Shown here piece by piece: positions 40,839 through 42,086 of a stretch of DNA of 64,000 nt. The translations under genes and the position numbers were made by a program. Origin of the DNA: Candidatus Magasanikiibacteriota bacterium (GTDB lineage: Bacteria > Patescibacteriota > Patescibacteriia > Magasanikbacterales > UBA922); NCBI GenBank assembly GCA_016207245.1, contig JACQQA010000005.1, positions 68-64,067 on the forward strand, read 5' to 3'. The notes beneath the pieces were generated by a model. The model saw nothing but the letters and a program-made list of their open reading frames with translations. It did no database searches and had not been told where the DNA came from. Within the stretch, counting starts at the first letter, position 1; every line of letters begins with the position of its first letter.

Positions 40839-42086
40839 TTAAATCCACTCTTTTTTTAATTCCAGAAATTTATCTTCTTTAATTGCCTGTCTAATTTCCC
40901 GCATTAAGTTTAAAAAGAAATGCAAGTTGTGAATGGTGGCGAGGCGATAGGCGAGGAGTTCTTCGGCTTTGAAGAGGTGGTTGAGGTAGGCGCGGGAGTA
41001 ATTCAAGCAGGTTGGGCAGGTACAAGTTGGATCAATGGGTGACCGGTCAGTTTTATATTGCGCGTTATTAATGTTTATTCTGTAAGAAAGGGATCCCTCG
41101 GCTCCTTCCAGTCGCTCGGGATGACAGTGTTGAAATAGTGCACCATTGCGGGCCATGCGGGTGGGGGCGACGCAGTCAAACATATCAACGCCGCGTTCAA
41201 CCACTTCAAACAAATCAGCCGGGGAAAAACCTACGCCCATAGTATAGTGCGGTTTGTCTTTGGGAATTATTGGATTGACCCAGTCTAATATTTTTTTTGT
41301 TGCCTCCATATTAAATCCGACTGATTCGCCGCCGATGGCGATGCCGTCGAACGCGAGTGATGATATTACCCGGGCGCTTTCTTCCCTAAGCTCTTTATGA
41401 TTAGCTCCTTGAATTATTCCAAATAAGTTTTGTTTGTAAGTGGGTAAGTTTGTAAGCGGGTGAGTTTTGTGTGCTGTAATACAGCGTTCGGCCCATTTGT
41501 GGGTTCGTTCCATTGCCTCGCGTGTATATTTTACATCCGCGTCATCTGGGGTGCATTCGTCAAACGCCATAATAATATCCGCGCCGAGTTTGTGTTGAAT
41601 TTCAATCGCGGATTCCGGTGTAAAGCGATGGGTGCTTCCATCCAAGTGAGAAGTAAAAGTAACTCCCTCGTCATCAACTTCAACCAATTTGGATTGTTCA
41701 TTGTTAAATTGTTCCATTGTTAAATTGTTAAATTGTTTTGACTTGCCTGTCGATGAAGCAGATGCTTTAATGTTTTTGTGTTTTAATGAAAAAACTTGAA
41801 ACCCGCCCGAGTCGGTTAAAATTGGGTGATTCCAGTTCATGAATTTATGCAAACCACCGAAGTTGTTGATTAAATCTTCGCCCGGACGGAGATGCAGGTG
41901 GTAAGTGTTAGCTAAAATAATTTGCACGTCAAGATTTTCCAGATCAGCGCTGTCTAAACTTTTGACCGTCGCTTGCGTGCCAACCGGCATAAAAACCGGC
42001 GTTTCAATGTCGCCGTGATCGGTGTGGATTACTCCGGTTCTCGCGAGGGAGTGTTTGTCTTGGTGGGTGATTTGGAAGAAAGACAT
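40839..42086 (-). CDS. tgt: tRNA-guanine transglycosylase (queuine tRNA-ribosyltransferase)
   Basis: 415 aa. [51 protein letters not shown], and zinc site CTCPTC..H. Contains in-frame repeat inserts. Confidence 0.93.

Follow-up and report, generated by a model that had tools for sequence, protein, structure and literature searches.

Bacterial MITEs (miniature inverted-repeat transposable elements, such as Correia/NEMIS, Nezha, and others) are small non-autonomous repeats that are able to extend open reading frames (ORFs), and a set of palindromic elements, RPE-1 to RPE-8, was reportedly described in Rickettsia by Ogata et al. in 2000. Repetitive extragenic palindromes (REPs) fall into superfamilies tagged by GTAG or CGTC and are mobilised by REP-associated tyrosine transposases (RAYTs; Y1/HUH), and a minority of REPs lie in frame inside genes, including UvrD and tRNA-modifying enzymes in other species (PMC3733652). 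Such intragenic REPs and the Rickettsia palindromic elements (RPEs) are a precedent (PMC3733652) for the case described here, which concerns tgt, the gene for bacterial tRNA-guanine transglycosylase (Tgt), in a 64-kb stretch of contig JACQQA010000005.1 (hereafter the window, meaning the whole stretch analysed; our counts of repeat copies per genome cover it alone). The host belongs, by its best protein matches, to Candidatus Magasanikbacteria, within the Candidate Phyla Radiation (CPR)/Patescibacteria. Its Tgt carries extra segments at three sites, and we find that these inserts are pieces of dispersed genomic repeats translated as part of tgt, one of them a copy of a GC-rich element that we call family A, and that they occupy three hypervariable loops, predicted to lie at the surface and flanked by conserved motifs, outside the catalytic-core sequence. 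The gene and its inserts are as follows:

40839 to 42086, minus strand: tgt coding sequence, 415 amino acids (aa), bacterial tRNA-guanine transglycosylase, intact ORF.
41679 to 41783, minus strand: site-1 insert, aa 102-136, starting KHKNIK, about 30 aa longer than in E. coli.
41433 to 41471, minus strand: site-3 insert, aa 206-218, a small third variable loop with 6 aa extra relative to E. coli.
41087 to 41125, minus strand: site-2 insert, aa 321-334, a translated family-A element of 39 nucleotides (nt), GTCATCCCGAGCG-ACTGGAAGGAGC-CGAGGGATCCCTTT.

The inserts are visible in alignments with E. coli and Z. mobilis Tgt. BLASTP against E. coli K-12 Tgt (44% identity; 43-44% across Z. mobilis and E. 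coli) leaves gaps on the E. coli side of 30 aa after GGFQVFSL, 6 aa at query positions 206-218, and 13 aa between ARNG.LF and I.I.NA, and the two main gaps return in the phmmer alignment with Z. mobilis Tgt (E = 5.6e-99 to 1ozm, with many structures at about 1e-98), which runs in two stretches, as does the match of the 415-aa product to Pfam TGT (PF01702; E = 4.7e-149). An earlier reading of this DNA, made from its letters alone (the sequence-only reading), had proposed two extra segments by comparison with E. coli Tgt strings; these strings were correct, the ORF holds both quoted peptides exactly, and the 30- and 13-aa gaps bear both segments out, but the third insert at aa 206-218 had been missed. 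That reading had placed the inserts within the catalytic core, but they sit in three variable loops, probably at the surface, instead.

The element at site 2 lies at the tip of a beta-hairpin ahead of the zinc subdomain, its 39 nt correspond to the 13-aa gap relative to Z. mobilis and E. coli, and both of its arms fit the family-A consensus exactly. The earlier derivation of this segment from a family-A element at 41090-41127 holds, as the 38-mer is present there and its arms recur in the window, where the exact 38-mer itself is unique. The left arm GTCATCCCGAGCG, allowing up to two mismatches, matches five times against 0.8 expected (0 of 100 shuffles reach five), and the left and right arms occur together and in order at four places, far above chance. 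The three copies other than that in tgt are intergenic or at gene edges, and the 8-nt words that make up site 1 likewise form arrays elsewhere:

7825 to 7873, plus strand: family-A copy, intergenic, with a long inner hairpin, in a convergent doublet with 7907-7935.
7907 to 7935, minus strand: short family-A copy ATCATCCCGAGCGACGACGAGGGATCCCT, just upstream of, or within the annotated 5' end of, an FtsW/RodA gene.
43633 to 43680, minus strand: family-A copy, intergenic, between a VTT-domain gene and uvrD, two genes from tgt.
39831 to 39869, minus strand: ATTGTTAA array of 8-nt period, in the 5' leader directly upstream of the start codon of Vut_1 (YhhQ-type queuosine-precursor transporter).
51617 to 51647, strand not given: further 8-nt-word array, from Tandem Repeats Finder (TRF)/pattern search.

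The Pfam FtsW match begins at aa 36 of the FtsW/RodA ORF, the copy at 7825-7873 has a DNA fold of -10.2 kcal/mol (z = -1.8), and the copy at 43633-43680 fits exactly the pattern used below to search a genome collection.

Sites 1 and 3 are of another kind. The site-1 insert has a GC content of 0.30 compared with 0.45 in the remainder of tgt, and TRF detects in it an array at 41693-41737 (consensus ATTGTTAA, period 8/16/24, 4.8 copies, 86% match), in agreement with the earlier attribution of this segment to attgttaaattg words. With up to one mismatch, the window contains eight matches to CAATTTAACAAT where 1.3 are expected, a count not attained in any shuffle. The array in the Vut_1 leader is built from the same word family as tgt site 1 and is conserved in the orthologous leader of L208, the closest genome fragment (about 87% nucleotide identity), and the orthologue P0002 has at site 1 a homologous, shorter tract with equal 8-nt periodicity. 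Site 3 contains a 16-nt tandem duplication (TRF 41432-41467, period 16, 2.2 copies). As a separate observation, the leaders upstream of tgt and Vut_1 (39831-39869 and 42089-42119 in the window, and those in L002, L206, L208, and L212) are tandem repeats with a period of 7-8 (14-16) nt, in which the word differs from gene to gene and is conserved between orthologous loci; the site-1 insert KSGLSGNPD of the orthologue P0008 resembles the tgt leader repeat of L002. No Rfam match to a PreQ1 riboswitch was obtained in the Vut_1 leader.

The inserts coexist with an enzyme that looks functional. The catalytic aspartate motifs TDSGG, AFDEC, and MFDCV align with their counterparts in Z. mobilis and E. 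coli Tgt (in Z. mobilis these are D102, D156, and D280, counted along the alignment), and the zinc site CxCxxC...H is kept, with CTCPTC and IHNLH aligned to both references (C318, C320, C323, and H349 in Z. mobilis). The AlphaFold model (predicted template-modelling score 0.84, built on 54 sequences) has the (beta/alpha)8 barrel with its C-terminal zinc subdomain, and Foldseek matches it to 1ozm and 1q2r with a template-modelling (TM) score of 0.91 (target-normalised) and a root-mean-square deviation of 2.4 A. With the three loops masked, the ratio of nonsynonymous to synonymous substitution rates (dN/dS) of the core is 0.04-0.09 at dS of 0.6-2.2 across seven orthologues (an eighth, P0019, had saturated dS), and the tgt core is thus under strong purifying selection. 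The queA and Vut_1 transporter genes lie near tgt here and likewise in related genomes; from the dN/dS values and these neighbours, Tgt should carry out the guanine-34/preQ1 exchange. The sequence-only reading had considered the catalytic and zinc motifs intact and the gene functional in appearance, and the alignment, the dN/dS values, and the fold agree with it. The structure modelling that it had proposed as a check gave a fold matching solved Tgt, in which the inserts have a predicted local distance difference test score (pLDDT) below 55 (below 50 at aa 97-131, site 1; a mean of 54 in the site-2 block, aa 321-330). From the model, the inserted loops are predicted to be solvent-exposed and clear of the tRNA, and the inserts probably form flexible loops that are neutral for catalysis.

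We compared the inserts across 120 orthologues from Candidatus Magasanikbacteria and relatives or other Patescibacteria (best matches of 381-465 aa), for ten of which the gene DNA was obtained. Apart from the termini, which also vary, length variation is essentially confined to the three loops, which range over 2-50 residues at site 1, 0-30 at site 3, and 0-34 at site 2. A metagenome scan, used as background only, returned mostly relatives at or below 62% identity; in 79 of these more distant Tgt the modal lengths at sites 1, 3, and 2 are 7, 11, and 8, compared with 37, 19, and 21 here, which argues that the inserts are not ancestral Tgt loops. This speaks against the alternative, ancestral loops shared with non-CPR Tgt, that the sequence-only reading had itself named as refuting, and neither E. 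coli nor Z. mobilis Tgt has the segments.

Among the closest relatives, P0004 and P0005 have family A at exactly the codon where the window has it (TGT CAT CCC GA. CGA ... GAG GGA TCC CTT TCT TAC), and P0006, P0007, and P0011 share the site-2 peptide of the window; the family-A insert is therefore inherited within this subclade and is not private to this genome. Beyond these orthologues, other sequences stand at the same sites. Site 2 is empty in P0013 (four-residue THKG, cf. TWDG in Z. mobilis), holds family B in P0008 (GTCATTGCGAGG...GACGAAGCAATCC followed by its inverted partner, in DNA), and holds family D in P0003; family C is present at site 1 in P0003 and P0013 and, as CCCCTCTCCTTTACAAGGAGAGGGG-CAGGGGGTGAGGT at the DNA level, at sites 1 and 2 in P0022, whose site 3 has a family-C peptide (protein level only). 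In P0051, site 1 carries a convergent family-E pair, GTCATCCCCGC-AAAA-GCGGGGATCC, and site 2 a single family-E copy, and element-type peptides appear at site 3 in P0012, P0014, P0021, and P0022. P0019 has a minimal family-A copy at site 2, where its nearest neighbour P0054 has FCSKKINKKLY instead; the P0019 copy is probably independent, and so is a minimal copy in another lineage, L131, whose site 2 reads CHSERSEES. In a neighbour-joining tree built with the loops excluded and without bootstrap, the site-2 states are interleaved within the clade of at least 75% identity. The presence of different families at the same sites across lineages indicates that the same loops have been repeatedly occupied by unrelated repeat families. 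A decayed family-A origin was also considered for the CHPDTIRAISGAEAHS loop seen in P0002, P0010, and P0014; we rejected it, since this loop is likelier to be a variant of the clade-wide HP[DE]T loop and has only its first 11 nt in common with family A.

Family A extends far beyond this clade. A species-representative genome collection searched with GTCATYCCGAGCG-N(4-34)-CGAGGRATCCC returned at least 120 stretches across many phyla, and the matches listed include Verrucomicrobiota/Chthoniobacterales, Acidobacteriota, Dehalococcoidia, Hymenobacter, Clostridia, Gammaproteobacteria, Gemmatimonadota, Magasanikbacteria, and other Patescibacteria. Among these listed matches the most frequent copies are 28 nt long and have 4 central nt, mostly AAGT, longer copies have an extra central hairpin, and copies are frequently in convergent pairs. 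Every family-A copy has GTCAT at its start and ATCC(C) at its end, and families A, B, and E have GTCAT...ATCC ends in common. In 174 of the 177 distinct copies listed, the Y of one arm is the Watson-Crick complement of the R of the other (T-A 86, C-G 88; Fisher P = 3e-47). This fits a conserved outer stem, and a split into two subfamilies by descent could contribute to the complementarity. The spread of the 28-nt core across phyla, together with this compensatory covariation, suggests a conserved recognition machinery. Rfam yielded no family at its gathering and E-value thresholds for the tgt copy or the 7825 and 7907 copies (best E = 1.3-9.5, CRISPR-DR/microRNA noise), and family A is apparently unnamed and very widespread.

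Several further observations concern the places where family A is found. At loci outside CPR (L114, L079, L026, and others) it is often in or beside a UvrA-like ORF, with eight of the 120 listed loci in one cluster, and a DnaE-like ORF at one such locus may carry an insert (names judged from the ORF sequences only), an association that recalls the reported bias of intragenic REPs towards DNA-repair genes. In Dehalococcoidia, L091 (4439-4952) and L004 (6247-7141) hold regular family-A arrays with conserved flanks, at an 80-nt period in L091, which look like a tandemly amplified unit and not like dispersed insertions. Family A is rare in viral contigs (12 stretches); four of them (L217, L218, L223, and L225) have two copies about 3.5 kb apart, and in the IMG/VR contig L217 family A stands in frame in a portal-like and a terminase-like gene (6794-9481 and 9959-11593; both named from ORF translations). 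The idea that the pairs mark the ends of an autonomous element was rejected, as the copies are in frame inside portal-like and terminase-like genes. It is conceivable, if doubtful, that the GTCAT...ATCC hairpins (A, B, and E) belong to one superfamily, so far undescribed and spread across phyla, of single-strand hairpin elements that move or undergo conversion, distinct from the GTAG/CGTC REPs, actively maintained at the nucleotide level even in genes, and repeatedly colonising the same permissive loops of essential enzymes (Tgt, QueA, phage portal, terminase); if so, a major part of the length variation among CPR proteins would stem from them.

Repeats in loops are not special to tgt, since QueA, KsgA, YceG, and other genes in the window show similar in-frame elements. 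The clearest of these is in the neighbouring queA:

37059 to 38348, strand not given: queA, 429 aa compared with 367-379 aa in related genomes.

QueA has three lineage-specific in-frame inserts, especially those at 37988-38085 and 38202-38261; the former is a near-perfect GC-rich hairpin of 98 nt with a fold of -67 kcal/mol (RNA parameters), and another QueA insert encodes SSKLGYGVTQ. A gene-by-gene comparison with L208 shows that the larger coding indels of QueA, YceG, and Tgt are mostly GC-rich segments (0.54-0.73) in genes with a GC content of about 0.44. In ksgA/rsmA (58423-59391; features at 58388-58465 and 58970-59016), a convergent family-C pair overlaps the annotated 5' end of KsgA, and a 9-aa insert, HTRSGQAGN, comes from a GC-rich RSGQA-type element and is absent from the aligned solved KsgA 7v2l.

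We consider it likely that selfish REP/RPE-like repeats have been tolerated in permissive loops of Tgt, such that dispersed repeats became translated coding sequence. On this account, a copy of the GC-rich hairpin GTCAT-YCCGAGCG...CGAGGR-ATCCC would have been incorporated into tgt at site 2, and sites 1 and 3 are AT-rich short-period tandem repeats of the type that forms 5' leaders in this genome. The route of insertion can be inferred only as a set of candidates, among them HUH/Y1-type transposition of single-stranded hairpins and microhomology-guided copying or conversion from other copies. Whatever the route, an insertion would survive only where the frame was kept, no stop was added, and the extra residues were tolerated, which in Tgt would be the three surface loops; the minimal family-A element, as read from its sequence, is free of stops in five of its six frames, which partly explains its survival in ORFs.

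A number of results weigh against this account. No mobilising enzyme was identified, and the only trace of a Y1 transposase in the window is a single sub-cut-off fragment (31105-31248; 48 aa, IS200-like, 21 bits against a Y1_Tnp cut-off of 23) that has another kind of repeat on its flanks. When 1,732 ORFs from the 120 listed loci were clustered all against all, no recurrent mobile-element protein emerged near family A, the recurrent clusters being housekeeping only (e.g., UvrA-like proteins and kinases). The comparison of P0019 (filled) with P0054 (empty) shows no target-site duplication; in P0019 the element stands in place of 21 nt of the native loop, and TGT and CTTT are all that the junctions have in common, so that microhomology-guided copying or conversion is as compatible with the junctions as transposition is. 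The inner stem is lost in the tgt copy, whose fold (-2.8 kcal/mol, z = +1.1) is not better than that of shuffled sequence, the family-A copies of this genome were counted in 64 kb of it, and the exposure of the loops and their clearance from the tRNA are predictions from low pLDDT, i.e., from indirect evidence. At site 2, F-x-H-P is also present in many orthologues that lack an element, which suggests that the left junction may be partly ancestral and makes the boundaries of the insert uncertain by a few codons.

These points bear on four other explanations. The nucleotide sequence itself may be useful within tgt, with the peptide incidental: proteins may bind it, recombination or conversion may be concentrated there, or the mRNA may form a hairpin that acts on translation or stability; this concerns the persistence of the element and not its origin, and it partly overlaps the account of tolerated repeats. 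Third codon positions are more conserved in the insert than in the core (14/15 vs 65% between the window and P0004, P = 0.015; 10/12 vs 41% between P0004 and P0019, P = 0.003; with a like trend in other pairs), the arms hardly vary from phylum to phylum and show compensatory Y-R covariation, and QueA retains its 98-nt near-perfect hairpin (-67 kcal/mol) in frame. Yet each comparison covers 12-15 codons only and some pairs are not significant, a recent independent insertion or conversion would give an equal pattern without function, the tgt copy is without the inner stem and folds poorly, and close relatives have unrelated families in its place or no element. Conversion from genomic copies, an insertion younger than the divergence of the genes, and selection at the nucleotide level are all possible sources of the third-position conservation, and we regard a useful nucleotide sequence as an unlikely explanation overall. 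The extra loops might alternatively be adaptive, lineage-specific features of the protein (tRNA contacts, or partner binding in CPR) whose likeness to repeats is secondary, as could be argued from the Lys/Asn-rich composition of site 1, which comes straight after the strand bearing the substrate-stacking Phe/Tyr106 position, from the enlarged loops at these sites that are common throughout the Magasanikbacteria clade, and from the site-2 loop of about 17 aa and HP[DE]T... type that many orthologues share. This we judge improbable, because loop sequence and length shift among relatives of 75-85% identity, including unrelated peptides and an empty loop, the site-2 DNA is a cross-phylum non-coding repeat that is exact in both arms, and the inserts are modelled at low confidence.

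The remaining two explanations are weaker still. The 8-nt repeat of site 1 could act as a slippage switch for phase variation, in which adding or dropping one unit would change the frame and turn tgt off. A period of 8 is not a multiple of 3, the array has 4.8 copies at 86% match, and its copy number differs from that of the orthologue P0002; however, just two adjacent units are perfect, all of the 120 orthologues are in frame with no frameshifted variants seen, and two Logan assemblies are identical, making such a switch very improbable. These assemblies, from runs SRR12113384 and SRR12113385, are both 100% identical to the window across the whole of tgt (one of them over 4,280 nt), and they speak equally against repeat DNA having been misjoined into tgt during assembly. 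The Logan contigs do end 32 nt upstream of tgt, and one also just downstream, which indicates that the surrounding repeats disturb assembly, but orthologues whose samples and sources (ENA, Logan, and NCBI) are unrelated carry this element at an identical codon and the reading frame of tgt is intact, and we find an artefact hardly credible.

Further repeats lie elsewhere in the window. At the gathering threshold, Rfam gives a single match there, Acido-Lenti-1 on the minus strand at 31013-31058 (45.9 bits), which adjoins the Y1 fragment at 31105-31248; a second, inverted copy of the 3' half of this motif follows at 31231-31266, and in L208 the same transposase fragment is found upstream of smc with a PGYYL-coding repeat on both sides (ORF translations only). 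The Acido-Lenti-1 "RNA motif" may be the terminal repeat of a decayed REPtron-like unit. Within ORF 2556-6254 (LTD-domain, 1232 aa), a cluster of GC-rich hairpins at 3901-4104 (fold of -58 kcal/mol over 130 nt) includes a 24-nt tandem repeat at 3915-3960. GC-rich hairpins also occur at 51672-51719 and 52135-52188 inside an O-antigen-ligase-like Wzy_C gene (50805-52313), with a strong hairpin (-53 kcal/mol) at 52637-52718 in the spacer downstream of this gene. A convergent family-B pair, GTCATTGCGAG...GAAGCAATCC, is present at 59419-59522 (59419(+)/59489(-)), a cluster of three family-E hairpins, GTCATYCCCGCGAAAGCGGGA..., at 60344-60476, and intergenic family-D copies of the type seen at site 2 of the sister orthologue P0003 flank a small gene (11520-11900) at 11418-11483 and 11895-11936.

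Set against the described systems, the inserts behave like RPE and REP elements yet lack what defines REP-RAYT systems and MITEs. In place of the terminal inverted repeats and target-site duplication of MITEs, the P0019 and P0054 comparison shows replacement of a loop with 3-4 nt of microhomology. The likeness to REPs and to REPINs, their inverted doublets, lies in convergent doublets at 7825(+)/7907(-), at 59419(+)/59489(-), and at site 1 of P0051, and may extend to imperfect palindromes of 20-50 nt that are mostly intergenic (four family-A copies in 64 kb, three outside genes or at a gene edge, with an outer stem that covaries and a weak fold of the tgt copy). Family A differs from REPs in its GTCAT end, which is neither GTAG nor CGTC; no RAYT flanked by family A was found in the window, no transposase recurs near family A in the 120 listed loci, and the single Y1_Tnp trace in the window is truncated and flanked by Acido-Lenti-1-like repeats. 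The insert peptides and the element sequence are absent from the supplementary lists of PMC3733652. Sites 1 and 3 resemble loop expansion by short tandem repeats in their 8/16/24-nt and 16-nt duplications and in the length variation among orthologues, and differ from it in that the tgt 8-mer is not a codon repeat and that the same word family builds a non-coding 5' leader.

The kind of event, i.e., REP/RPE-like repeats inside genes, is thus already known, and what is new is the host group (CPR) and the apparently unnamed family of elements. Full-text literature contained no report of palindromic or REP elements in CPR, Magasanikbacteria, or Parcubacteria, nor of the element sequence, which is weak evidence given an incomplete library. 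Proteins of CPR/Patescibacteria are often longer than reference enzymes or oddly gapped against them, and dispersed repeats in surface loops are one concrete source of this; alignment gaps and low-complexity inserts in CPR proteins should be checked for repeats before they are called functional domains, and gene callers and assemblers may be misled at loops that bear repeats. Tgt, for which structures are solved and whose three loops take in five or more element families among close relatives, offers a tractable system in which to ask how hairpins enter genes and what causes their nucleotide conservation there. A close parallel is offered by the RPEs, which like the tgt element are short palindromes found in frame in housekeeping genes of a small genome, translated, and tolerated in loops of a host protein that stays functional, and whose hosts include tRNA-modification and DNA-repair genes. 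This likeness is functional only, as the sequences are probably unrelated and the host belongs to CPR/Patescibacteria and not to Rickettsiales; moreover, elements of the tgt type measure 28-50 nt compared with about 100-150 nt for RPE-1, family A occurs in many phyla and is not restricted to a genus, and several unrelated families occupy the three Tgt loops. With these differences, the tgt case is a little-documented CPR counterpart of the in-gene palindromic elements of Rickettsia, in which a short palindrome was inserted in frame and the host protein was retained.

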